A stretch of DNA of 64,000 bases from assembly GCA_964016885.1 (NCBI GenBank), contig OZ024741.1, positions 228,408,001 to 228,472,000 on the forward strand, read 5' to 3'. Numbering within the stretch: position 1 is the first letter of the stretch; each line of letters opens with the position of its first letter. Position numbers and translations under genes: made by a program. Under the pieces are notes generated by a model. It was given only the letters and a program-made list of their open reading frames with translations. It was not told where the DNA came from and ran no database searches. The DNA is from Eledone cirrhosa (lineage: Eukaryota). Positions 1,609 through 62,419 of the stretch are shown here, in pieces.

Positions 1609-2677
1609 GATGTTTTTGCATTCTTGCAATAACATACACAACTGAATTCATTCGCCTGATATAGGGATTGCCTCCCTTGCCGATCCCCACGTGGCGTCAG
1701 TAACAGTCAGTCCTTGTATTAACATTGAACTAAAACCTGTTGAGAAAGTGGCTTCCTTGTTCAATAATCTTTCCAGAAGCCTAACATTATTTATGTAAGC
1801 GGACAGTATTTGATTTAGGAGCCGCAGAAACCCAAATGCTGGATTTTACCAACCTTCCAGGGGTACGGGTAAATTTTCAATCACAGATATTTTTTATTTG
1901 TTTGACCCGAATTACTTGATCGTTTTTTGGGCTATGCGAATGATTGTTTAACCATCGTCTCAGTGTGTTTGGCCTTTAACGTTTGTTATAGCTCTGGTTC
2001 ATCTGAATCATTGAGCACTTGCCACACATCTCGGAGGTTGTTTTTCGTTATTTCGTGGGCCGAAATGCGATTCTCGATAATTTATATTTATATTAATCTC
2101 CAAACTCTAGCTATTGACCAGTCAATTTTCTTGATTTTTAGTTGATTCTATTGACTGATGAATAGCTTGTTAATTTTAACCCTTCTGTTGAGAACTCTAT
2201 TCGATTTGTGATGTTTTTGCATTCTTGCAATAACATACACAACTGAATTCATTCGCCTGATATAGGGGTTGCCTCCCTTGCCGATCCCCACGTGGCGTCA
2301 GTAATAGTCAGTCCTTGTATTAACATTGTACTAAAACCTGTTGAGAAAGTGGCTTCCTTGTTCAATCATCTTTCCAGAAGCCTAACATTATTTATGTAAG
2401 CGGACAGTTTTTGATTTAGGAGCCGCAGAAACCCAAATGCTGGATTTTACCAACCTTCCAGGGGTCCGGGTAAATTTTCAATCACAGATATCTTTTATTT
2501 GTTTGACCCGAATTACTTGATCGTTTTTTTGGCTATGCGAATGATTGTTTAACCATCGTCTCAGTGTGTTTGGCCTTTACCGTTTGTTATAGCTCTGGTT
2601 CATCTGAATCATTGAGCACTTGCCACACATCTCGGAGGTTGTTTTTCGTTATTTCGTGGGCCGAAATGCGATTCTCG

Positions 2678-2680
<3 letters not shown>
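1604..2680. repeat. Partial tandem duplication (~601-bp unit, ~1.8 copies) between (TA)n tracts
   Basis: tttgtgatgtttttgcattc recurs at 1604 and 2205, and both copies run to ...attctcgataat. A related end occurs inverted at ~10725-10790. Confidence 0.85.
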
Positions 2681-2754
<74 letters not shown>

Positions 2755-2758
<4 letters not shown>

Positions 2759-5700
2759 CATATCCGCAAGGATACACAAAACAACTTCGACATAACCATG
2801 GTGTCTAGTGAATCGGCGCAGGTCACTGATTTGGTAGGTCTATATTTACTAAACGAAATCCATAAGGACCTTCCATACCTCAACGGTGGTTTGTACCGCG
2901 ACGATGCACTTCTCTTTATAGACTATAAAAAATTCAATATAGAAAGAACTAGAAAACTATTGCACAAGACTTTCAAAAACTATAACCTGAGTATCACCAT
3001 AGACAAAAACACTAAAAACGTTAACTTCCTAGATGCCACCCTCTACCTAGACTCTAGGATATATACACAATTCCCTAAACCTAACGAAAATCTGATTTAC
3101 GTAGATATCAAGTCTAACCACCCTAGATCAATATTAAACTCTATCTCTAAGGGAATATCCAATAGAATATCTAATCTATCTTATGACGAAAACATATTTA
3201 GCAAAAACTCGCAATATTATAATCAGGCATTAGCTAGATCAGGCCATAATAAGGAGATCGAGTTCCTACCTACAAAAACACATAGTTACAACATTATTTC
3301 GTACAATATGTCCATGCGGAAAAATAGTAATACGAATAACAACCACGCACACAGTAATACGAAGGATGGCAACAAACCTAACCCACACCACAGAAGTCAC
3401 CATAATACCATAAACGAAAGCATCTCACCAGTCATAAAAAACAAAAATAGAAGAAATAATACTTTTTTCAACCCTCCTTTCAATCTAAACGTCTCTACCA
3501 ACCTACCCAAGGCTTTCTTCTCACTCCTGGATTAAAACTTCCCATCTGGCCACAAGTACCATAGTCTTATAAACAAAAACATAATTAAAATCTCCTACTC
3601 TACCACGCCTAACATAGCATACCACATAGCTAGTAGCAATAAAAGAAAAATTAATACTTACTTCCAACAAACTAAAACACGACAGGGAGTAAACCTTCAA
3701 AATAACATTATATCTACTAACCCTGATATCAATAGTAATAATAGTAATACCACTAGTGTAAGCAATAACGCTGAGAGCGACAACCCCCATAGCCATAATG
3801 CAACAACTAACAAACAGACTTCTACACAACATAATAACCGGCAGGTTAACATCCAAAATAATTGTAACTGTAGATCTAATAGAACCTGCCCTTTAGATAA
3901 AAAATGCTTAATCAAGGATATCATATACTCATGCACCATCATAACTAGCAACTCTTCTGAAACCTATATAGGCTCTACTTCAAACTGTTTCAAAACCAGA
4001 TACAATTCGCACCTCCATTCTTTCAAAAAAACACAGTCTAGCCAACTCCACTTCACTATCTAGCGACATACACCATCTAAAAACTAAAAATAGATCTTAT
4101 ACACTTAAATGTAAGGCGGCATCGTACAAACCACCTAATAAATTTTGTAACCTCTGTCTACTAGAGACCCATACTATAATCTTCTCAAACCATAACCTCC
4201 TTAATAAAAAATCGGAAGTGTTCGCGTCGTGCCAGCACCGCTTCCGGCACTCCTCCCAAAACTTTAAACCCAATATATAGCAATGTCAGGCTTGAACCCA
4301 TCACCACTTCTAGCACTACACCTCAAGGGCACACCTTACACCTTACACCACAACTCCACACTCACTGATCCACCCTATCTTAACACAAATCGTTTCACCT
4401 ATCTATAACTTTATACACTAGAAATATCCTCATGTATACCTATTTTTAGTATAATTACTTTCAATTACTTATAATTATATAGTGATACAATACAGTCTAT
4501 GTAAACTTTAAATTCCAGATTCGACAATGGATTATTTGTGCAAATGTATTTCTATGTATGGAGTGCTATCATTGGATATATATAAATTTAATTTATTAAC
4601 ATAAGAGATCTGTATAACCTATATGTTGAGTGCAATGAATTGTGTATGAGTGGTATGTGAGTTATATATGCATGCATGGATGGATTAATGACATTGTAAG
4701 TGAGAGATGCTTTTTGGTCTGCCCTAGAGATGTATTTAGCTTTGCCGTGCAGTCAGCCATACGCTGCCCCAGAGCTTACCTGGGGTTATATAGACGTAGT
4801 TCTAATAGGTCCCCTGACAGGTACTGTGAGTAGACTACATTTGCAAAGATCTGTGATATAAAGATGTGGCTCTTTGTATGGAATATTCAGTTGTAGCACT
4901 CTATGATAGGGAGTAATCATCCTAATATAGATACCTTTAGTACTTCTTGATAGAGTAGACTGTAATTAAAAATAGGATACCTAAAATTGGAAACTGAATA
5001 TATAACCGTCTATATAAGGGACTCAATTGAGACACCTTATAATGTATGTTGGAATAATAAATTTAGTTATAGAAATCAGCTAGTTACCTCCCCTTACGCA
5101 TTAACTCCCCTTAATCACACACATACTTCCGGATAATAAACCGATGTAAATTCTCGCAACAGAAACAACTCGTTCTTTAAAATTGGATTAAAGAACACTG
5201 AGCCGCAGCAAGCTAAAATAAGTTAATTTAATGCATCAAACATCCAATACGGAATCATCGTTAATTATTTGAAGGATGTATAAACTATATATTACGTTTC
5301 TTGAATGTGAAAATGGTTGTGGATACAAAAACCATAACCTTCTTTTGCTTCTCCTTTATACTATTTTTCTGCACGCATACTTCTGTATCATATACAAAAA
5401 ATACCTTACCACTACAACCTCCATAATACTCTTACTTACCCGCTTTAAGTGCTTCTATTAAATGTAACACCCTGCCGCACAATAATCATATATAAATGAG
5501 ACACACGTGCATGCCCCACGCGTAACTAACGCATAAAATAACTAAAATAACTACTACATTTGACTAACAAACTATCCTCTTGCATTATCTATGTTAACTG
5601 CTGATTGTATTTTAATTTTGCTTTGATTTTGTTTTAATGTGATTTTGATTTTGAATTTGAATTGCTATACAGATAATATAATATATGTCACTCCACTGTA

Positions 5701-5995: not shown

Positions 5996-6066
5996 ATATA
6001 TTTTGACTGATGAAAACGTACTTAAACATCATAGTACCTTTGAAATATATATAATAAAATATATAT
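5996..6066 (+). ncRNA. Minimal type I hammerhead ribozyme motif (PLE pLTR fragment)
   Basis: CTGATGA at 6007-6013, stem II gtact/agtac, GAAA at 6042-6045, then TATATA-TA. Stem I is atatattttg/taaaatatat with an A-A mismatch at the junction. Confidence 0.6.
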
Positions 6067-7524: not shown

Positions 7525-9435
7525 AGGAGGTTATAGTTCACTTGAAGCATTGTGTAATGAGGTATAAACGTTTGTATATGTATAATAAAGCCAAAACAAT
7601 GCAGGTATGGACATAGAATAAAGAATGCAAATGCAAAAGATATTGTTGACAATTAGTCTTTTACCTTAGATTTATTTAAATGTCCTTAATTTTCGAGATA
7701 ATATCTCTTCTTCGGAGGGAAGTAAAGCGGTTAAACCAGTGTTCTAAATAGCTTGCCATGTCATGCTGACAGGAAATGTATAGAGTATCTGTTCTATCTC
7801 TAATGTCAAAGACTTAAGGTTAGGTGGATAAAGAGTAGTCTCCGTTTAAAAGGTTTTTTTTTGTACATGCCTGTTTAAGTGTGTGGGAGAATGCATGAAG
7901 GTGTAAGTATGTGAGTGTGTGTGTGTGAGTGTGAGAAGATATGTCTATACGTAAATGTGGGGGATAGATGTTATCTCGTGTTAGAACTGATCTTTGTGTG
8001 TGTATGTGTGTGAGAGAGAATAAGTGGAGGTGTAAGCGTGTTGTGTGTGTGTGTGCGTGTGTGTGTGGACGCCAGTATAAAGTTCAGCATGGAACACCCC
8101 GATGACCGCGGATCCCTATCCATACTGGACTTCCAACTCAGGGTAACAGAGGAAGGCAACATCCACACCTGCTTCTATAAAAAAAGCCGCCAGCGGGACC
8201 TGTTCGTACATTTCAGATCGGCCCTCCCAGCCGGCGCTAAGTTCGGATACATAAGGAACGAACTAACACGTATCCGGAGCAAATGTACTGACACTAGAGA
8301 CCGAGACACACACACCACACATTTCCTGGAAGTACTCAAACTGAACGGATACACGACATCCACCACAAACCGTGCCAGAAAGAACAGAGGACACCACACC
8401 CGAGGCACTAACACTTTCTTCCTGAAGCTCCCACACTTCAGTGACGAAACAACAACAGCCATCCGCAGAGCTATCAGACGAGAGGGACTAGATATACAAC
8501 TGGCCCACTCAGGTCCTTCTCTACATGGACAGCTAACCAAAAGACACTCCACCAGACATGACAACTGCTGCAGGCTAGCCAACTACCCCATCAACGACAC
8601 AGACCTATGCCACCAGGCTTACGTCGTATACAGACTAGAGTGTGACAAATGCAGCAACTTCTACGTAGGTAGCACCACCAGACCACTCCACATAAGAATA
8701 AAAGAACACCTCAATACTAACGCTTCCTCATTTAAGAAACACATAGTTAAATGCAAAAACACCGACAAAACCATAACAGTTAGGATAGAAACTAAGGAAA
8801 GAAACCTCGGCAATCTTAGAATTAAGGAAGCACTAATTATAGACAAAACACAACCACCAATCAATAATAGACTAGAACTCAACACCCAATTTATAACTTC
8901 ATAGAGCTTCTAGCCCGATATTTACCCCCCCCCCCCACACACGCGCACACACACGCACACGACACGCTTACACCTCCACTTATTCTCTCTCACACACATA
9001 CACACACAAAGACCAGTTCTAACACGAGATAACATCTATCCCCCACATTTACGTATAGACATATCTTCTCACACTCACGCACACACACTCACATACTTAC
9101 ACCTTCATGCATTCTCCCACACACTTAAACAGGCATGTACAAAAAAAAAACCTTTTAAAGGGAGACTACTCTTTATCCACCTAACCTTAACTCTTTGACA
9201 TTAGAGATAGAACAGATACTCTATACCATTTCCTGTCAGCATGACTTGGCAAGCTATTTAGAACACTGGTTTAACCGCTTTACTTCCCTCCGAAGAAGAG
9301 ATATTATCTCCAAAATTAAGGACATTTAAATAAATTTAAGGTAAAAGACTAATTGTCAACAATATCTTTTGCATTTGCATTCTTTATTCTATGTCCATAC
9401 CTGCATTGTTTTGGCTTTATTATACATATACAAAC

Positions 9436-15419: not shown

Positions 15420-18400
15420 CGATTAACTGTATTAACAATAACAATAGGGTCGACTGTAACAACAACAACAATAGGATCACAGTAGCAACAAGAAGAGGAT
15501 CAACTTTAACAAAAAGGGGATCAATTATAACAACAAGAGGATCAACTATAACAACAAGAGGATCATCAATAACAACAAGAGGATCAACAACAATAACAAG
15601 ACGATCAACAATGACACCAAGGGCATCAACTATAACAACAAGAGGATCAACAACAATAACAAGAGGATCAACAATAACAACAAGAGGATCAACTATAACA
15701 ACCAGATGATCAACTATAACAACAACAGAAGATCAACTATAACAAGAAGGGGATGAACTATAACAAGAGGATCAACAATAAGAACAACAGGATCACAGTA
15801 TCAACAATAACGACAGGAGGATCAACTATAACAACAAGGGAATAACTATAACAACAAGAGGATCAACAATAACAAGAGGATCAACTATAGCAACAAGAGG
15901 ATCAACAATAACAAGAGGAACAACAATAACAACTACAAGAGGACCAACTATAACAACAAGAGGATCAACAATAACAACAAGTGGATCAACAATAATAACA
16001 AGAGGATCAGCTATAACAACAAGGGGATCAACTATAACAACAAGGGTATCAACAATAACACCTACAGGATCAACTATAACAACAAGAGGATCAACAATAA
16101 CAAATAGAGGATCAACAATAACAACAAGGGGATCAACTATAACAACGAGAGGATCAACTATAACAACAAGAGGATCAACAATAACAACAAGAGGATCAAC
16201 AATAACAACAAGGGAATGAACTATAACAAGAGGATCAACAATAACAACAGAAGATCACAGTAACATCAAGAAAAACAAGTGGATCAACTATAACAGCAAG
16301 AGGATGTACAATAACAACAAGAGAATCAACAATAACAACAAGAGGATCAACAATAACAACAACAGGATCAACTATAACAACAAGGGGATCAACAATAACA
16401 AAAACAGGATCAACTATAACAACAAGAGGATAAACAATAACAACACGAGGATCAAGTGTAACAACAAGGGGATCAACAATAACAACAAGAGGAACAACAA
16501 GAACAACTACAAGAGGATCAATTATAACAACAAGGGGATCAACTATAACAACAAGAGGATCAACAATAACAACAAGAAGATCAACAATAACAACAAGGGA
16601 ATGAACTATAATAAGAGGATCAACAATAACAACAGAAGATCACAGTAACAACAACAGCAACAAGTGGATCAACTGTCACAAAAAAGGTATCAACAATAAC
16701 GACAAGAGGATCAAATATAACAACAAGGTATCAACTATAACAACAAGAGGATCAACAATAACAACAAGAGGATCAACAATAACAACTAGAGGATCAACAA
16801 TAACAACAAGAGGATCAACTATAACAACAAGGGGATTAAACAATGACAACAAGAGGATCAACAATAACAACAACAGGATCAACTATAACAACAAGAGGAT
16901 CAACTATAACAACAAGAGGATCAAAAATAACAACACGAGGATCAACAATAACAACAAGAGGAACAACAAGAACAACTACATGAGGATCAATTATAACAAC
17001 AAGAAGATCAACAATAACAAAAACAGGATCAACTATAACAACAAGGGGATAAACAATAACAAGAGGATCAACTATAACAACAACAACAGGATCAACAATA
17101 ACAACAATAGGTTCAACTATTACAAAAAGGGGATCAACAATAACAAGAGGAACAACAAGAACAACTACAAGAGGATCAAATATAACAACAAGGGGATCAA
17201 CTATAACAACAAGAGTATCAACAATAACAACGAGAGGAACAACTATAACAACAAAAGGATCAACTATAACAACAGAAAGTCACAGTAACAACAACAACAA
17301 CAACAACAACAACAGGATCAACAATAACAACAACAGGATCAATTATAAGAACAAGAGGACCAAAAATAACAACAGGATCATCTATAACAACAAGACGATC
17401 AACAATAACAACAACAGGATCAACAATAACAAAAAGAGGATCAACAATAACAACAAAAGGATCAACTATAACAACAAGAGGATCAACAATAACAACAAGA
17501 GGATCAACAATAACAACAGAAAATCACAGTAACAACAACAACAACAAGTGGATCAACTATAACAAAATAGGTATCAACAATAACGACAAGAGGAACAACT
17601 ATAACAACAAGGTATCAACTATAACCATAAGTGGATCAACAATAACAATAAGATGATCAACAATAATAACAGGAGGATCAACAATAATAACAACAGGATC
17701 AACTATAACAACAAGGGGATCAACAATAACAACTACAGGATCAACAATAACAACTACAGGATCAACAATCACAACTACAGGATCAATTATAACAACAACA
17801 GTATCAAATATAACAACAAGAGGAACAACAATAACAACAAGAGGATCAACAACAACAAGGGGATCAACAATAACAACAAGAGGAACAAAAAGAACAAATA
17901 CAAGAGGATCAACTATAACAACAACAGGATCAACTATAACTAAAAGGGGATCAACAATAACAACAAGAGGATAAACTATAACAAAAAGAGGATCAACTAT
18001 AACAACAACAGGATCAACTATAACTAAAAGGGGATCAACAATAACAACAAGAGGATAAACTATAACAAAAAGAGGATCAACAATAACAACAACAGGATCA
18101 ACTATAACAACAAGGGGATCAACAATAATGACAAGAGGATCAACTATAACAAGAAGAGGATCAACAATAACAAAAACAGGATCAACTATAACAAAAAGGC
18201 GATCAACAGTAACAACAAGAGTATCAAATATAACAACAAGAAGATCGACAATAACAAAAAGAGAATCAACTATAACAACAAGGGGATCAACAATAATAAC
18301 AACGGGATCAACTATAACAACAAGAGTATCAACAATAACAACAAGAGGATCAACAATAACAACAAGAGGATCAACAATAACAACAATGGAATGAACTATA

Positions 18401-21400
18401 ACAAGAGGATCAACAATAACAACAGAAGATCACAGTAACAATAACAACAACAAGTGGATCAATTATAACAAAAAAAAGTATCAAAAATAACCACAAGAGG
18501 ATCAAATTTAACAACAAGGTATCAACTATAACAACAAAAGGATCAACAATAACAATAAGAGGATCAACAATAACAACAAGAGAATGAACAATAACAACAA
18601 CAGGATCAACTATAACAACAAGGGGAAAAACAATAACAACTAGAGGATCAACTATAACAACAAGAGGATCAAATCTAACAACAACATGATGAATTATAAC
18701 AACAAGAGGATCAACAATAACAACTACAAGATCAACTATAACAACAAGAGAATCAACTATAACAACAACATGATGAACTATAACAACAAGATGATCAACA
18801 ATAACAACTACAGGATCAAACTATAACAACAACAGGATCAACTATAACAGCAAGAGGATCAACTATAACAACACGATGATCAACTGTAAAAACAAGGGGA
18901 TCAACAATAACAAGAGGAACAACAAGAACAACGACAAGAGGATCAACTAATACAACGAGAAGACCAACAATAACAACAACAGGATCAACAATAACAACAA
19001 GAGGATGAAGAATAACAACAAAAGGATCAACTATAACAACAATAGGATCAATTATAACAACGAGAGGATCAACAATAACAACAAGAGGATCAACAATAAC
19101 AACAAGGGAATGAACTATAACGAGAGGATCAACAATAAAAACAGAAGATTACAGTAACAACAACAACGAGTGGATCAACTATAACAACAAGGTATCAACT
19201 ATAACAACAACAAGAGGATCAACAATAACAAAAAAATGATCTACAATAACAACAAGAGGATCAACAATAACAACAACAGGATCAAATATAACAACAAGAG
19301 GATCAACAATAACAACTACAGGATCAATTATAACAACAATAGGAACAACAATAACAACAAGAGGATCAACAATAACAATAAGGTGATCAACTATAACAAC
19401 AAGAGGATCAACAACAACGACAACAGGATCAACTATAACAAAAAGAGGATCAATTATAACTACAAGAGGATCAATTATAACTACAAGAGGATCAACTATA
19501 ACAACAAGAGGACCAACAATAACAACAAGGGGATCAACTATAACAATAAGGGGATCTACAATAACAAAAAGAGGATCAACTATAACAACAACAGGATCAA
19601 CAATAACAAAAAGGGGATCAACAATAACAACAAGAAGATCAACAACAACAACAAAAGTATTAACTATAATAACAAGAGGATCAGCTATAACAATAAGGGG
19701 ATCAACAATAACAACAAGAGGATCAACAATAACAACAAGAGGATCAACTATAACAACAAGAGGATCAACAATAACAACAACAGGAACGACTATAACAAGG
19801 AGATCAACAATAAAAACAAGAGGATCAACAATAACAACAAGGGGATCAACTATAACAACAAGAAGATCAACAACATTAATAATAGGATCAACAAAAACAA
19901 CAAGAGGATCAACTATAACAACCAGAGTATCAACTATAACAACAACAGAGGATCAACTATAACAAGGGAATGAACTATAACAAGAGGATCAACAATAACA
20001 ACAACAAGTGGATCAACTATAAGAAAAAAGGTATTAACAATAACGACAAGAGGATAAACTATAACAACAAGGGATCAACTTTAACAACAAGTGGAGCAAC
20101 AATAACAACAAGAGAATCAACAATAACAACAAGAGGATCAAAATAACAACAACATGATCAACTATAACAACAAGGGGATCAACAATAACAACTACAGGAT
20201 CAACTATAACAACGAGAGGATCAACTATAACAACAAGAGGAACATCAATAACACCAAGAGGATCAGCTATAACAACAAGGTGATCAACAATTACAACAAC
20301 AGAAGCAACTAGAAAAGCAAGGGGATCAACAATAACAACGCAGGATTAACTATAAGAAGATCACAATAACAACAAGAGGATCAACTATAACAACTAGGGG
20401 ATCAACTATAACAACAAGAGGATCAACTATAACATGGGGATAAACAATAACACCAAGAGGATCAACTATAACAAGAAGAAAATCAACAATAACAACAAGA
20501 ATATCAACAATAACAACAAGAGGATGAACTATAACAACAAAAGGATCAAAAATATGAACAAGAGGATCAACAATAAAAACAAGAGGATCAACAATAACAA
20601 CAACAAGGGGATCAAGAATAGCAACTACAGGATCAACTATAACAACAAGAGGATCAACTACAACAACAACACGATCAACTATAACAACAAGAGGATCAAC
20701 TACAACAACAACACGATCAACTATAACAACAAGAGGAACAAAAATAACAACAAGAGGATCAACAATAACAAGAGGATCAACTATAACAACAAGAGGATCA
20801 ACAATAACAACAAGGGAATGAACTATAACAAGAGGATCAACAATAAAAACAGAAGATGACAGTAACAACAACAACGACGAGTGGATCAACTATAACAACA
20901 AGGTATCAACTATAACAACAAGAGGATCAACAATAACAAAAAAGGATCAACAATAACAACAAGAGGATCAACAATAACAACAACAGGATCAACTATATCA
21001 ACAAGAGGATCAACAATAACAACTACAGGATCAATTATAACAACAATAGGAACAACAATAACAACAAGAGGATCAACAATAACAACAAGGGGATCAACTA
21101 TAACAACAAGAGGATCAACAACAACAACAACAACAGGATCAACTATAACAAAAAGAGGATCAATTATAACAACAAGAGGATCAACAATAACAACACGAGT
21201 ATCAACTGTGACAAGAAGGGGATCAACAACAACAACAAGAGGAACAACAAGAACAACTAGAAGAGGATCAACTATAACAACAAGAGGACCAACAATAACA
21301 ACAACGGGATCAACTATAACAACAAGGGGATCTACAGTAACAAAAAGAGGATCAACTATAACAAAAACAAGATCAACAATAACAAAAAGGGGATCAGCAA

Positions 21401-24400
21401 TAACAACAAGAGGAACAACAAGAACAACTACAAGAGTATCACGTATAATAACAACAGGATCAACAATAACAACAACAGGATCAACAATAACAACAAGAAG
21501 ATCAACAACAACAACAAAAGTATTAACTATAATAACAAGAGGATCAACTATAACAACAAGGGGATCAACAATAACAACAAGAGGATCAACAACAACAACA
21601 AGAGGATCAACTATAACAAGGAGATCAACAATAAAAACAAGAGGATCAACAATAACAACAAGGGGATCAACTATAACAACAAGAGGATCAACAACATTAA
21701 TAATAGGATCAACAAAAACAACAAGAGGATCAACTATAACAACCAGAGTATCAACTATAACAACAACAGAGGATCAACTATACAAGGGAATGAACTATAA
21801 CAAGAGGATCAACAATAACAACAACAAGTGGATCAACTATAAGAAAAAAGTTATCAACAATAACGACAAGAGGATCAAATATAACAACAAGGGATCAACT
21901 TTAACAACAAGTGGAGCAACAATAACAACAAGAGAATCAACAATAACAACAAGAGGATCAAAATAATAACAACATGATCAACTATAACAACAAGGGGATC
22001 AACAATAACAACTACAGGATCAACTATAACAACAAGAGGATCAACCATAACAACAAGAGGAACATCAATAACACCAAGAGGATCAACTATAACAACAAGG
22101 TCATCAACAATTACAACAACAGAAGCAACTAGAAAAACAAGGGGATCAACTATAACAACGCAGGATCAACAATAACAACAAGAGGATGAATTATAACAAC
22201 AAGAGGATCAAAAATATCAACAAGAGGATCAACAATATAAACAAGAGGATCAACAATAACAACAACAGGATCAAGTATAATAACAAGGGGATCAACAATA
22301 GCAACTACAGGATCAACTATAACAACAAGAGGATCAACTACAACAACAACACGATCAACTATAACAACAAGAGGATCAACTACAACAACAACACGATCAA
22401 CTACAACAACAAGAGGAACAAAAATAACAGGAGGATCAACAATAACAAGGGGATCAACTATAACAACAAGAGGATCAACAATAACAACACCGGGATCAAC
22501 TGTACAACAAGAGGAACAACAAGAACAACTACAAGAGGATCAACTATAACAACAAGAGGACCAACAATAACAACAAGGGGATCAAATAAAACAACAAGGG
22601 GATCAACAATAACAACAAGAGGATCAACTATAACAACAGGCTCAACAATAACAACAACAGGATCAACTATAACAAAACGGGGATCAGCAATAACAACAAG
22701 ATGAACAACAAAACAACTACAAGAGGATCAACTATAACAACAAGAGGATCAACAATAACAACAAGAGTATCAATAATAACAACAAAAGTATCAACTATAA
22801 CAACAAGAGGATCAACTATAACTACAAGAAGATCAACAATAACAAAAACAGGATCAACTATAACAACAAGAGGATAAACAATAACAACACGAGGATCAAG
22901 TGTAACAACCAGGGGATCAACAATAACAATAAGAGGAACAACAAGAACAACTACAAGAGGATCAATTATAACAACAAGGGGATCAACTATAACAACAAGA
23001 GGATCAACAATAACAACAAGAGGTAAAAAATAACAACAAGGGAATGAACTATAACAAGAGGATCAACAATAACAACAGAATATCACAGTAACAACAACAG
23101 CAACAAGTGGATCAACTGTCACAAAAAAGGTATCAACAATAACGACAAGAGGATCAAATATAACAACAAGGTATCAACTATAACAACAAGAGGATCAACA
23201 ATAACAACAAGAGGATCAACAATAACAACTAGAGGATCAACAATAACAACAAGAGGATCAACTATAACAACAAGCGGATCAACAATGACAACAAGAGGAT
23301 CAACAATAACAACAACAGGATCAACTATAACAACAAGAGGATCAACAATAACAAGAAGAGGATCAACTATAAAAACAAGGGGATCAACAATAACAACAAG
23401 AGGATCAACTACAACAACAAGGGGATCAACAATAACAACAAGAGAAACAACAATAACAACTACAAGAGGACCAACTCTAACAACAAGGAGATCAACAATA
23501 ACAACAAGAGGATCAACTCTAACAACACTATCAACAATAACAACAACAGGATCAACTATTCCAAAAAGGATATCAGCAATAAAAACAAGAGGAACAACAA
23601 GAGGATCAACAATAACAACAACAGGATCAACTATAACAACAAGGGAATCAACAATAACAACTACGGGATCAACTATAACAACTAGGGGATCAACTATAAC
23701 AACACGAGGATCAACTATAACATGGGGATCAAAAATAACAACAAGTGTTTCAACACTATCAACAAGAGGATCAACAATAACAACAAGAGAATCAACTATA
23801 ACAACAAGAGGATCAACTATAACAACAAGAGAATCAACAATACAACAAGAGGATCAACTATAACAACAAGAGGATCAACAATAAAAACAAGAGGATCAAC
23901 AATAACAACAAGGGAATGAACTATAACCAGAGGATCAACAATAACAACAGAATATCACAGTAACAACAACAACAAGTGGATCAACTATTACAAAAAAGGT
24001 ATCAACAATAACAACAACAAGAATCAAATATAACAACAAGGGGATCAACAATAACAAGTACAGAATCAACTATAACAAAAAGAGGATCAACTATAACAAC
24101 AACATGATGAAATATAACTACAAGAGGATCAATAATAACAACTACAGGATCAACTATAACAATAACAGGATCAACTATAACAACAAGAGGATCAACTATA
24201 ATAACAAAAGAATTAACAATAACAACACAAGGATCAACTGTAACAACAAGGGGACCAACAATAACAACAAGGGGATCAACTATAACAACAACAGGATCAA
24301 CAATATCAACAACAGGATGAACTATAACAAAAAGAGGATCAGCAATAACAACCAGAGGAACAACAAGAACAACTACAGGAGGATCAACTATAACAACAAG

Positions 24401-26830
24401 AGCATCAACAATAACAACAAGAGGATCAACAATAACAACAAGAGGATCAACTATAACAACAAGGGGATCAACAATAACAACAACAGGATCAACTATAACC
24501 ACAAGGGGATCAACAATAACAACAAGAGGAACAAGAAGACCAACTACAAGAGGATGAACAATAACAACAAGAGGACCAACAATAACAACAAGGGGATCAA
24601 CTATAACAACAAGGGATCAACAATAACAACAAGCGGATCAACAATAACAACAAGGGATCAACAATAACAACGAGAGGATCAACAATAACAACTCCAGGAT
24701 CAACTATAAAAACAACAGCATCAATTATAACACCAAGAGGAACAGCAAAAACAACAAGAAGATCAACAATAACAACAAGGGGATCAACTATAACGACAAG
24801 AGGATCAACAATAACAACAACATGATCAACTATAACAACAAGAGGATCAACTATAACTACAAGAGGATCAACAATAACAACACGAGGATCAAATGTAACA
24901 ACAAAGGGATCAACAATAACAACAAGAGGAACAACAAGAACAACTACAAGAGGATCAACTATAACAACAAGAGGACCAACAATAACAACAAGGGGATCAA
25001 CTATAACAACAAGGGATCAACAATAACAACAAGCGGATCAACAATAACAAAAAGGGTATAGCAATAACAACAAGAGGAACAACAAGAACAACTCCAACAA
25101 GAGGGGGTTTCAACTATAACAAGATGGGGATCAACTATAACAACAACATGATCAACTATAACAACAAGAGGATCAACTATAACAACAAGAGGATCAACAA
25201 TAACAACACGAGGATAAAGTGTAACAACAAGGGGATCAACAATAACAACAAGAGGTTCAACTATAACAACACGATCAACAATAACAACAACAGATCAACT
25301 ATTCCAAAAAGGATATCAGCAATAACAACAAGAGGAACAACAAGAACAACTACAAGAGGATCAACTATAACAACAAGAGGATCAACAATAAAAACAAGAG
25401 GATCAACTATAACAACAAGGGGATCAACAACAACATCACAGGATCAACTATTACAAGGAGATCAACAATAACAACAAGAGGATCAACAATAACAACTACA
25501 GAATCAACTATAACAACACGAGGATCAACTATAACAACAAGAGGATCAATAATAACAACACAAGGATCAACTGTAAGAACAAGGGGATCAGCAATAACAA
25601 CAAGAGGAACAACAAGAACAACTACAAAAGGATTAACTATAATAACAAGAGGATCAACAATAACAACAAGAGGATCAACAATAATAACAAGAGTATCAAC
25701 AATAACAACAAAAGGATCAACTATAACAACAAGAGCATCAACAATAACAACAAGAGGATCAACAATAACAACAAGAGGATCAACAATAACAACAAGAGGA
25801 TCAACTATAACAGCAAGGGTATAAACAATAACAACAAGAGGATCAACAATAAAAACAAGAGGATCAACTATAACAATAAGGGGATCAACTATAACAACAA
25901 GAGGATCAACAACAATAACAATAGGATCAACAATAACAACAAGAGGATCAACTCTAACAGCCAGAAGATCAACTATAACAACAACAGAGGATCAACTATA
26001 ACAACAAGGGAATGAACTATAACAAGAGGATCAACAATAACAACAACTAGTGGATCCACTATAACAAAAAAGGTATCAACAATAACGACAAGAGGATCAA
26101 CTATAACAAGAAGGGATCAACTATAACGACAACAGGATCAACTATAACAACAAGGGGATCAAAAATAACAACTACAGTATCAACTATAACAACAAGAGGA
26201 TCAACTATAAAAATAAGAGGAACATCAATAACAACAAGAGGATCAACAATAACAACAAGTGGATCAACTATAACAGCAATAGAATGAACAATAATAACAA
26301 GAGGATCAACTATAACAACGACAGGATCAACAATAACAACAAGAGGATCAACTATAACAACAAGGTGATCAACAATAACTACAACAGGATAAATTATAAC
26401 AACAAGGGGATCATCAATAACAACAAGAGAATCAACTATAACAACAAGAGGATCAACTATAACAACAAGAGAATAAAATACAACAAGAGGATTAACTATA
26501 ACAACACGGGGATCAACAATAAGAACACAGGATCAACTATAACAAGGAGATCAACAATAATAACAAGGGGATCAACTATAACGACTAGGGGATAAACTAT
26601 AACAACAAGAGGATCAACTATAACATGGGGATCAACAATAACAACAAGAGGATCAACTTTAACAAGAAGAGGATCAACAATAACAACAAGAGTATCAACA
26701 ATAACAACAAGAGGATGAAATATAACAACAAGAGGATCAACAATAACAACAAGAGGATCAATAATAACAACAAGAGGATCAACTATAACAACAAGAGGAT
26801 CAATAAAAAAACAACAAGGGAATCAACACT
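15420..26830. repeat. ~11.4-kb degenerate satellite, basic unit 21 bp ATAACAACAAGAGGATCAAC(A/T), with higher-order duplications
   Basis: Unit visible throughout; translations TRGSTIT / NNKRINY / DPLVVIV are frequently broken by frameshifts and stops. Confidence 0.95.
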
Positions 26831-27136
26831 AGCAACAATAACTAAAATCCCACAGAAACAAAGACAACAACAAAAGCAACAGCCTTAGGAACAGGAACAA
26901 AAACAATAAAAACGAGTTTTATCAGCAACAGCAACGATAGTAAAAAAAACACAATAACAACAACAACAACAACAACGAAGTAGGCCACACCGCACGTGTT
27001 CGCTCCGCTTGCTAGAAATAGCAGAAAAAACTCCCTCAAATCACATACACCATTCTCTTAAAATAAAGACACATTGGACAATGCGGGTTCCTGATATATA
27101 TTTTTAAAAAGACGGTTAGAATATCTTAGATTATAT

Positions 27137-49855: not shown

Positions 49856-49894
<39 letters not shown>

Positions 49895-49900
<6 letters not shown>

Positions 49901-50822
49901 GGAAAAAATGAAACGAAATTTCATTTCCCACTCTTAGTACGGCTGTTACTTAAATATAAGTATGTATACGTACATACATATATGTATACATACGTATAGT
50001 AGTATGTATATATGTATACATACATGCACACACATATATATGTACGTATGGATTCACCAAAAATTTATTATAATGCTCGGTGTGTTTGTAAACAAACATC
50101 CCGTATTAAGCCGCAGTGTCTAGCAACCACCGTTGCTCGTTTGTTCAACACTGACAAAGGAACGCTGTACTAGTTTCAAGCTTCTTAGCTATCGTCAGCA
50201 ACGTGTGCCTTCCTGCAAGATTGTTGAACGTCCGAAAGTATATACTTTCATTATGCACATTAACGGCTGAGTAGCCCAATTTGCATATCGAGTGGGTAAA
50301 TCGGCCGGGTGCACCGACAACGATAAACGGAAAAAATGAAACGAAATTTCATTTCCCACTCTTAGTACGGCTGTTACATAAATATAAGTATGTATACGTA
50401 CATACATATATGTATACAGACGTACAGTAGTATGTATATATATATACTTACATGCACACATATATATATGTACGTATGGATTCACCAAACATTTATTATA
50501 ATGCTCGGTGTGTTTGTAAGCAAACATCCCGTATTAAGCCTCAGTGTCTAGCAACCACCGTTGCTCGTTTGTTCAACACTGACAAAGGAACGCTGTACTA
50601 GTTTCAAGCTTGTTAGCTATCGTCAGCAACGTGTGCCTTCCTGCCAGATTGTTGAACGTCCGAAAGTACATACTTTCATTAAGCATATTAACGGCTGAGT
50701 AGCCCAATTTGCATATCGAGTGGGTTAATCGGCCGGGTGCACCGAAAACGATAAACGGAAAAAATTGAAACGAAATTTCATTTCCCACTCTTAGTACGGC
50801 TGTTACTTAAATATAAGTATGT
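49895..50822 (-). repeat. Retrozyme-like tandem array, 428-bp unit (~2.2 copies), one minimal HHR per unit
   Basis: HHRs at 50162-50204 and 50590-50632: acgttg-CTGACGA-tagct..agctt-GAAA-CTAG-TA^cagcgt. Homologous to 58190-61317. Confidence 0.88.
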
Positions 50823-51659: not shown

Positions 51660-52215
51660 GCCGATGAATATGTTTTGCAAGGTTTTTGATATGAAATCGT
51701 GTGTCGAAACAAGTATTAATATTGCCAGAAATAAAAACAGATCACACTCACTGTTTGGTTTGGGTTGGTTTTCGCCTCTGTATCTTCTATATCTCCATAG
51801 TTAATTTAATTGGAAATCAATGTTTATAATTGATTGACTAACGGTTAAAAATACAGATATACATATATATATATACTCTATCAAAGTTCTTTCGTCACAC
51901 ACTTTTATTTAATTTATTTATAATAAATAAATAAAATAAAAATGGAGTAGACTTTATAACACAATGGGAAGAAAGACAGTAGTACCACTGATGATGTCGC
52001 AGATGTGTGACGAAAGAACGTTGATAGACTATATATATATATTCATATCTGTACTTTTAACCGTTGATCAATCAATGATAAACATTGATTGCCAAATAAA
52101 TTAACTATGGAGATATAAATAATACAAAAGCGAAAACCAACCCAAACCAAACAGTGAGTGTGTTCTGTTATTATTTCTGGCAATTTTATAACAACATGAC
52201 TCTCCTCAAGTATAA
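51660..52215. mobile_element. Non-autonomous fold-back derivative of the 61640-64000 PLE pLTR, with HHR at 51983-52026
   Basis: 51720-51900 is inverted at ~52005-52185; tacca-CTGATGA-t-gtcgca-gatg-tgtgac-GAAA. Confidence 0.75.
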
Positions 52216-58137: not shown

Positions 58138-61411
<3,274 letters not shown>

Positions 61412-61878
61412 AAGGTCAAAAACAAACAAATCGACATCGATTGAATGCACTCTGAAGAATGGTATAGCTTCAAAACATATGCGTGTGTATGTGATTGTAT
61501 GTGTTTGTCTGTGTTCGGGATTGCGTTTATTGTTTGTTTAAGTCCTATAACTTAAGTCCTATAACTTAGAATTCGAATAAAAAAAGGATCACACTTGAAA
61601 AAATATGCCGCCTAATAATTGAAATTAATAATGAATTTTGTGAGGCTTTTGATATGAAATCGTGTGTCCAAACAAATATTGTTATACTTGGGGAGGGTCA
61701 TATTGTTGTTATAATATTGCCAGAAATAATAACAGAACACACTCACTGTTTGGTTGGTTTTCGCTTCTGTATCTTTTATATCTCCACAGTTAATTCATTT
61801 GGTCCTCAACGTTTATCATTGACTGACGAACGGTCAAAAATACAGATATAATATAGATATAAACACATATATAAAGTC

Positions 61879-61922
61879 TAACAAAGTTCTTTCGTTGCAC
61901 ATTTGCAACATCATCAGTGGTA
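61879..61922 (-). ncRNA. HHR motif in PLE pLTR (second copy 62140-62183)
   Basis: tacca-CTGATGA-t-gttgca-aatg-tgcaac-GAAA-gaac-TT^tgtta. Stem II is perfect and covaries with the 51983 copy; stem I is weak. Confidence 0.65.
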
Positions 61923-62419
61923 CTATTATGTTCCTCCTGTTGTTATACGTGGGGAGGGTCATATTGTTGTAATAAAATTGCCAGAAATTATAACAGAACA
62001 CACTCACTGTTTGGTTGGTTTTCGCTTCTGTATCTTTTATATCTCCACAGTTAATTCGTTTGGTCCTCAATGTTTATCATTGACTGACGAACGGTCAAAA
62101 ATACAGATATAATATAGATATAAACACATATATAAAGTCTAACAAAGTTCTTTCGTTGCACATTTGCAACATCATCAGTGGTACTATTATGTTTCTCCTG
62201 TTGTAGTGTATGTCTACGCCATTTTGATTTTTATTTTATCTGTTTATTTATTTATTTTTGTCTTCTTCTCTGCGCATGCGTTTGCGTGTGTGTATAGTGT
62301 TTGGTGTGTGTTCGCATTTGGGTGACTGTGTTTTGGTTATTGTATTCTATCTTAGTTTACTAGTGTGTATTTATATGTGTTTGTTGTTATTGTGCTTATG
62401 TATATATTTATTTATTTAT

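Follow-up and report, generated by a model that had tools for sequence, protein, structure and literature searches.

A tandem repeat at 49895-50822 of the window (the whole 64,000-nucleotide stretch of DNA analysed here) ends in a TA microsatellite, and the question raised by this locus is what kind of element it represents and by which machinery it was inserted. We consider it to be a tandem, 5′-truncated insertion of an animal non-LTR retrozyme, a non-coding type I hammerhead repeat of high copy number whose insertions have two fixed end sites, likely copied into (TA)n by a Penelope-like reverse transcriptase (RT) with a GIY-YIG nuclease; we give this reading a probability of roughly 0.78. 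TRF reported a period of 428 and 2.2 copies at 49895-50822 on the minus strand (array A, subfamily A), in a microsatellite-rich host genome of 3.0 Gb. The parts of the array are as follows, L and S denoting the two 3′ end sites described below.

49858..49897, no strand: (TA)20 target tract, met by the L end at 49895 with TAT microhomology
49895..50322, minus strand: 3′-terminal unit of array A, 428 bp, longest ORF 76 aa
49906..49926, minus strand: predicted hairpin immediately upstream of the L 3′ end
49948..49961, minus strand: small CUUA/UAAG hairpin whose loop contains the S end site, where array A does not end
50162..50204, minus strand: second hammerhead copy, loop 2 AAGA, predicted cleavage between 50168 and 50167
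50323..50750, minus strand: second unit, 16 substitutions relative to the 3′-terminal unit
50569..50658, minus strand: predicted extended helix I with an internal loop, around the core (z = -2.93, 0/200 shuffles)
50590..50632, minus strand: type I hammerhead motif, predicted cleavage after GUA, between 50596 and 50595
50751..50822, minus strand: third unit, 5′-truncated, 72 bp

The unit is non-coding and has no LTR (longest Met-initiated frame 76 aa in the doubled unit), and the GC contents of the units were 0.386, 0.347 and 0.356, where retrozymes are expected to stay below 45-50%. Loop 2 reads AAGA in one of the two hammerhead copies of array A and AACA in the other. The octamer ATGCAAAT was observed at window 50708-50715 on the minus strand, about 80 nt upstream of the hammerhead core. 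An snRNA-type promoter is present in newt satellite 2, according to the available part of PMC2220036; as a promoter here the octamer was rejected, its distribution being patchy, with presence in A, B and C and in only one of three E units.

A second array of the same kind lies in the window at 58.2-61.3 kb.

58188..58594, minus strand: inverted arm of array B, one hammerhead unit, S end into (TA)n
58595..61318, plus strand: forward arm of array B, five hammerhead units, L end into (TA)n

The preliminary description had taken the 428-bp unit to be homologous to a unit at 58-61 kb on the opposite strand, and TRF and alignment agree with it: the array A unit matched the five plus-strand units and the one inverted unit at about 73-75%, and units of subfamilies A and B align end to end. 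The sequence changes that it had reported were also recovered, helix I being ACGTTG/CAGCGT in A and ACGGTG/CATCGT in B, and the core differing only at N7 (CTGACGA in A, CTGATGA in B). As had been claimed, helix II and the CTAG loop are unchanged, but the divergence ascribed to the flanks is uneven, the 3′ tail (46/53 identical) and 5′ flank (77/92) being almost as conserved as the ribozyme (30/31). Similarly, both arrays do run into (TA)n with homologous ...TTAT ends, at 49895 and 61318, but the inverted arm of array B stops at a second fixed site, about 58 nt short of that position.

The predicted hammerhead consists of a 6-bp helix I, CUGACGA, a helix II formed by a U·U pair plus 4 bp, GAAA, and a helix III of 1 bp with a palindromic CUAG loop, and helix I is predicted to extend beyond an internal loop as a long stem. 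Although Rfam at the gathering score gave no match to the array A motif, judged by its sequence the motif fits the canonical animal type I hammerhead, which is defined by a helix I of 6 bp, helix II of 4 bp, helix III of 1-2 bp and a palindromic loop, and which acts as a dimer (PMC4209133); it does not fit the minimal Penelope type. For the monomer, the canonical fold was predicted at -1.3 kcal/mol, compared to -8.1 kcal/mol for a competing minimum-energy fold. Because of this competing fold, the weak helix III and the U·U pair, the monomer may cleave poorly. Dimers of Xenopus retrozymes showed no cleavage in vitro in 8 of 9 cases, according to the available text of bioRxiv 10.64898/2026.07.22.740005.

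Selection on the ribozyme fold had been proposed from the differences between A and B; the conclusion stands, but the evidence offered for it is weak, and the strong support came from sister family E. Between A and B, the core was identical at 30/31 positions compared to 182/227 in the non-microsatellite flanks (p=0.013), and at p=0.13 when compared with the tail alone, a modest excess of conservation. The G-U to U-G swap in helix I is weak evidence of selection because this position tolerates A-U and U·U as well as U-G and G-U among copies. Plain-sequence conservation of the ribozyme above its flanks fails when A is compared with family E (23/31 vs 70% overall). The catalytic bases are the same at 11/11 positions in A and E at 70% overall identity (0.02 by chance), a figure that is not independent because E was retrieved by a pattern fixing those bases. 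In comparison, across 11 hand-picked and mutually related variants, D and E among them, pairing holds in 94.7% of cells and 7 of the 12 helix I and II pairs have changed on both sides, while slid frames gave at most 2 such pairs. None of 500 shuffles matched the covariation score, and 63 of 500 matched the pair count. This compensatory change shows that the predicted ribozyme fold has been maintained by selection.

The repeat copies are dispersed and high-copy. A tight hammerhead pattern had 24,033 exact matches genome-wide and its reversed control had 0, while leaving helix II free gave 28,412 matches. Excluding the U·U pair gave 10,936, which among the matches listed were mostly sister family E and a minor variant, D. 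Variants of helix II length were rare (100 and 82 matches, mostly mutated copies). The family E unit (466-469 bp) is colinear with A and about 70% identical to it over aligned columns; unit lengths are 428 bp here and 479 and 466 in relatives. Contigs from three sequencing runs repeat both the L end and the high copy number. Additionally, two runs from two other organisms (X4 and X6) contained pieces 80-95% similar to the unit in low-depth contigs, and a single 14-kb array (G000:C1:5738326-5752444) was observed to contain about 31 units of family E, spaced at 466 bp, plus an inverted arm.

To tabulate the 3′ ends we used 55 loci out of the first 100 pattern matches on contig C1, chosen regardless of their ends, with 9 of 81 terminal arms left unclassed for want of a tail anchor. 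Of 141 tail regions, 62 continue and 79 end, 38 of them at L, 40 at S and 1 between; S lies about 55-60 nt upstream of L in this sample, and the spacing overall is about 55-75 nt. Of 22 head-to-head pairs, 21 combined one L with one S end (p=5e-7 on 21) and the other combined S with a truncated tail, two of the 22, both in L121, being probably one duplicated event. In family E, for which 25 loci were partly picked for visible inverted pairs, all 37 ends fell on the fixed sites (19 L and 18 S, 69-74 nt apart) and all 12 head-to-head pairs were L+S. Pooling both families, 33 of 34 pairs were L+S, and none was L+L or S+S; the L+S combination also holds for array B in the window. The junctions are fixed rather than random, with 78/79 and 37/37 ends on L or S. 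The claim of independent insertions with a defined 3′ end holds, except that there are two fixed sites instead of the single one supposed.

The S site is located inside the loop of the CUUA/UAAG hairpin, which is common to A, B and E, and the L site comes after a longer predicted hairpin. TA-rich sequence follows 72 of the 79 ends, and both sites overlap the target by TAT. In six copies viewed for target duplications, all three with an L end outside (TA)n had one, of 10, 13 and 13 bp, and none was seen in the three ending in (TA)n.

Copies are truncated at the 5′ side to varying extents, inverted 5′ copies occur, and 81 5′ ends were scattered along the unit; placement was poor within the TA-rich spacer, and array A's own end was misplaced. 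Near the hammerhead 5′ ends at first seemed to cluster, an effect that disappeared when subfamily references were used. The sequence just past the predicted cleavage site was matched 100 times, and in no case did the copy start at that site; the template was therefore either a ligated circle or an uncleaved multimer. In L182, 11 units have no substitution between them, but this is not decisive for rolling-circle copying because subfamily B is young. L116 (G000:C1:19313000-19318800) has a Z-Y-X-Y-X order with two-unit periodicity, X and Y differing by 11 substitutions in the core window with 0 within each class; the periodicity is weaker in L128 and L091. It could reflect a dimer circle or one tandem duplication, and since the latter explains L116 equally, higher-order repeats were rejected as proof of circles.

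Two fixed ends, one at each end of back-to-back insertions, constitute the footprint of Penelope-like elements and therefore likely name the mobiliser. The genome contains 10,596 GIY-YIG candidates, of which 150 were scored and 50 loci read. Open frames among them reach 938 and 1096 aa, and among three long frames Pfam found RT plus GIY-YIG in two and RT in the third; near-intact RT+GIY-YIG elements were seen in L161, L163 and L169. The frames carry a CX4CxxC linker of the type that the available part of PMC8557442 associates both with microsatellite targeting and with Neptune and Nematis elements. From this linker, rather than from a tree, we infer that the RT+GIY-YIG elements of this genome are Neptune-type. 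Family N1 has two end sites 64 nt apart in (TA)n and 3/3 inverted insertions of the L+S kind, with more of the element, in two tandem copies, beyond the L site; family N2 has 1/1 inverted insertion of the L+S kind, with a tail of about 46 nt. The CUGANGA pattern was not found in family N1, near whose end there is a look-alike, CAGAAGA...GAAACCGGTA. In the family N2 hammerhead (L164, L165, L168, L175 and L176), helix II is short with a basal U·U, and helix III is a single pair capped by a palindromic GUAC loop, an odd build shared with the retrozyme. Retrozyme tails compared with N1 or N2 tails were similar only within the range of shuffles. No autonomous parent sharing the unit was found in the sample searched through GIY-YIG loci, with tblastn and with patterns of altered helix II length: 2 of 50 GIY-YIG loci carry the unit, both as separate insertions (one read fully, one by coordinates), and 5 of 217 other loci had RT/EN similarity, with a clear pLTR arrangement in none. 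Broken coding remnants of Penelope-like elements occur in the window itself.

2507..4063, plus strand: broken Penelope-like coding remnant, GIY-YIG E 0.0066
8014..8904, plus strand: broken Penelope-like coding remnant, GIY-YIG E 2.3e-6

The window holds further CUGANGA...GAAA motifs of several families, at 6007, 6408, 9692, 38736, 39074, 39448, 40663, 40890, 43264, 49147, 51988, 56794, 58042, 61917 and 62178. Helix II is long in most of them, resembling the minimal Penelope type of hammerhead, and the window is dense in such ends. Two 261-bp tandem units at 61679-62204 each contain a minus-strand hammerhead-like motif, which belongs to another family than array A and is related to the motif at 51988. 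At 15458-26838 an AAC-rich unit of 21 bp is repeated about 540 times over 11 kb.

The likely mechanism is that an enzyme of the Penelope type copies RNA, either circular or multimeric and uncleaved, beginning at two internal sites. In the fuller form favoured here, retrozyme arrays would be transcribed as multimers, the hammerheads would cleave as dimers through a palindromic ACUAGU helix III, and the monomers would be ligated into circles. The Neptune-type protein would nick both strands of AT-rich DNA, each nick starting cDNA at one of two internal sites, S in the small hairpin loop and L 55-75 nt further 3′. Copying would circle the template and stop randomly, and the two cDNAs would join head-to-head, the survival of a single arm leaving a one-armed array such as 49895-50822. 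A more tentative account, to which we give somewhat less than even odds, has the Neptune-type enzyme copy retrozyme circles as a dimer, with priming from the two nicked (TA)n strands at two sites that the structure of the same RNA defines. Such a process would produce the strict rule of one long and one short end and, from heterodimer circles, XYXY arrays, and the start sites would be kept by structure while sequence likeness to the helper is lost.

The same element and enzyme might instead use a linear, uncleaved multimer as template, with the ribozyme dispensable for insertion, which we regard as a real possibility with the odds against it. Read-through of the cleavage site fits such a template equally well, the ribozyme mutants of an anole Penelope element insert unimpaired in vitro (available part of PMC11167929), and adjacent units 11-17 changes apart, as in L116, would be expected from a transcript of an old mixed array. 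However, the 11 units without substitution in L182 and the array of about 30 units at 466 bp suit a rolling circle, the compensatory change places the fold under selection, and related repeats form abundant circles in coral, mussel and axolotl, as the available part of PMC7229834 describes. An autonomous Penelope-like element with an overlooked ORF, of which the copies would be solo pseudo-LTRs or 3′ fragments, appears improbable, although all the end features are Penelope-like and the search for a parent was small. Against it, the tail of the previous unit was found upstream of the unit start in the 30 loci examined, the long head-to-tail arrays are free of ORFs, and a 4-5 bp helix II with a long helix I is canonical, while the minimal Penelope type has a helix II of 7-8 bp.

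LINEs, too, yield 5′ truncation, inversions and target duplications of 10-13 bp. All of these are compatible with mobilisation by a LINE (e.g. RTE) in the manner of an ordinary SINE, but the chance of this is slim, as the 3′ ends fall on two fixed internal sites, a different one at each end, the outer ends are both 3′ ends of the element, and the co-resident RT+GIY-YIG elements follow the same rule. The least probable reading is a satellite spread by recombination with a vestigial hammerhead, its short ends made by later deletion between TA tracts. Long homogeneous arrays, two-unit periodicity and the position of the S site at the end of a TA-rich spacer would suit it, but random deletion predicts L+L and S+S pairs, of which there were 0/34, and fixed ends, target duplications and tens of thousands of dispersed short copies also oppose it, so that the data on ends, pairs and duplications largely refute it.

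The class of element, the animal retrozyme, is already known, and the insertion footprint is the new part; the preliminary description had named neither this class nor the probable mobiliser. Its mobiliser has so far been argued from co-occurrence and pLTR similarity, whereas here the Penelope tail footprint was counted in the insertions of two diverged families and in protein-coding elements that share their genome. The paired-end rule is valuable because insertion scars tie the retrozyme to the Penelope machinery; it also makes the tail rule of Penelope-like elements more precise, with one site per DNA end, and a direct test is made possible with a near-intact RT+GIY-YIG frame, a template of 430-480 nt and two predicted start sites. 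We found no published report of a Penelope end footprint for a retrozyme in the texts consulted, on which their supplements may bear.

Animal retrozymes were defined, with Penelope-like elements proposed as candidate mobilisers, in PMC7229834, and the Penelope link was argued from co-occurrence and pLTR trees in bioRxiv 10.64898/2026.07.22.740005, whose main text contains neither 'tail' nor 'junction' by term search. The following comparison is with the parts of these sources that were available. As in the present case, non-LTR retrozymes are tandem, low-GC, non-coding units of 150-450 bp with one canonical type I hammerhead each, occur in thousands of copies, co-occur with Penelope-like elements and have target duplications of >4 bp. 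Units range from 51 to 972 bp in the preprint, and the 428-480 bp found here lie at the upper end of 150-450. Neither the two-site end rule nor head-to-head insertions are described in those parts. Of 57 Xenopus families in the preprint, 21 match Penelope entries, while no pLTR relative was found here. In HHR_Amex1 of axolotl, helix III is one pair long and carries a palindromic tetraloop, and in HHR_Amex2 helix II has a U·U at its base, as here, and both cleave well only as dimers (PMC7229834). Unlike either, the present motif joins both weak features in one ribozyme, while in family E, unlike A, a G-C pair is restored at the helix II base. Newt satellite 2 and the axolotl repeats are unrelated in sequence as far as compared (no Rfam match).

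EN+ Neptune-type Penelope-like elements likewise have 5′ truncation, partial tandems, an inverted 5′ copy, a tail at one end, microsatellite targets and a hammerhead in the repeat, according to the portions available of PMC8557442, PMC3846280 and PMC11167929. In contrast to them, the retrozyme has no RT or GIY-YIG ORF, has a canonical hammerhead and forms pure head-to-tail multimers. A tail at one inverted end is a Penelope trait (PMC3846280, PMC8557442 and PMC8969392, available sections), the tail being 55-75 nt here compared with the 30-40 nt quoted there for Penelope-like elements. Two internal RT start sites were also observed in vitro in the accessible part of PMC11167929, where priming reportedly proceeded without target homology, whereas both sites here share TAT with the target.
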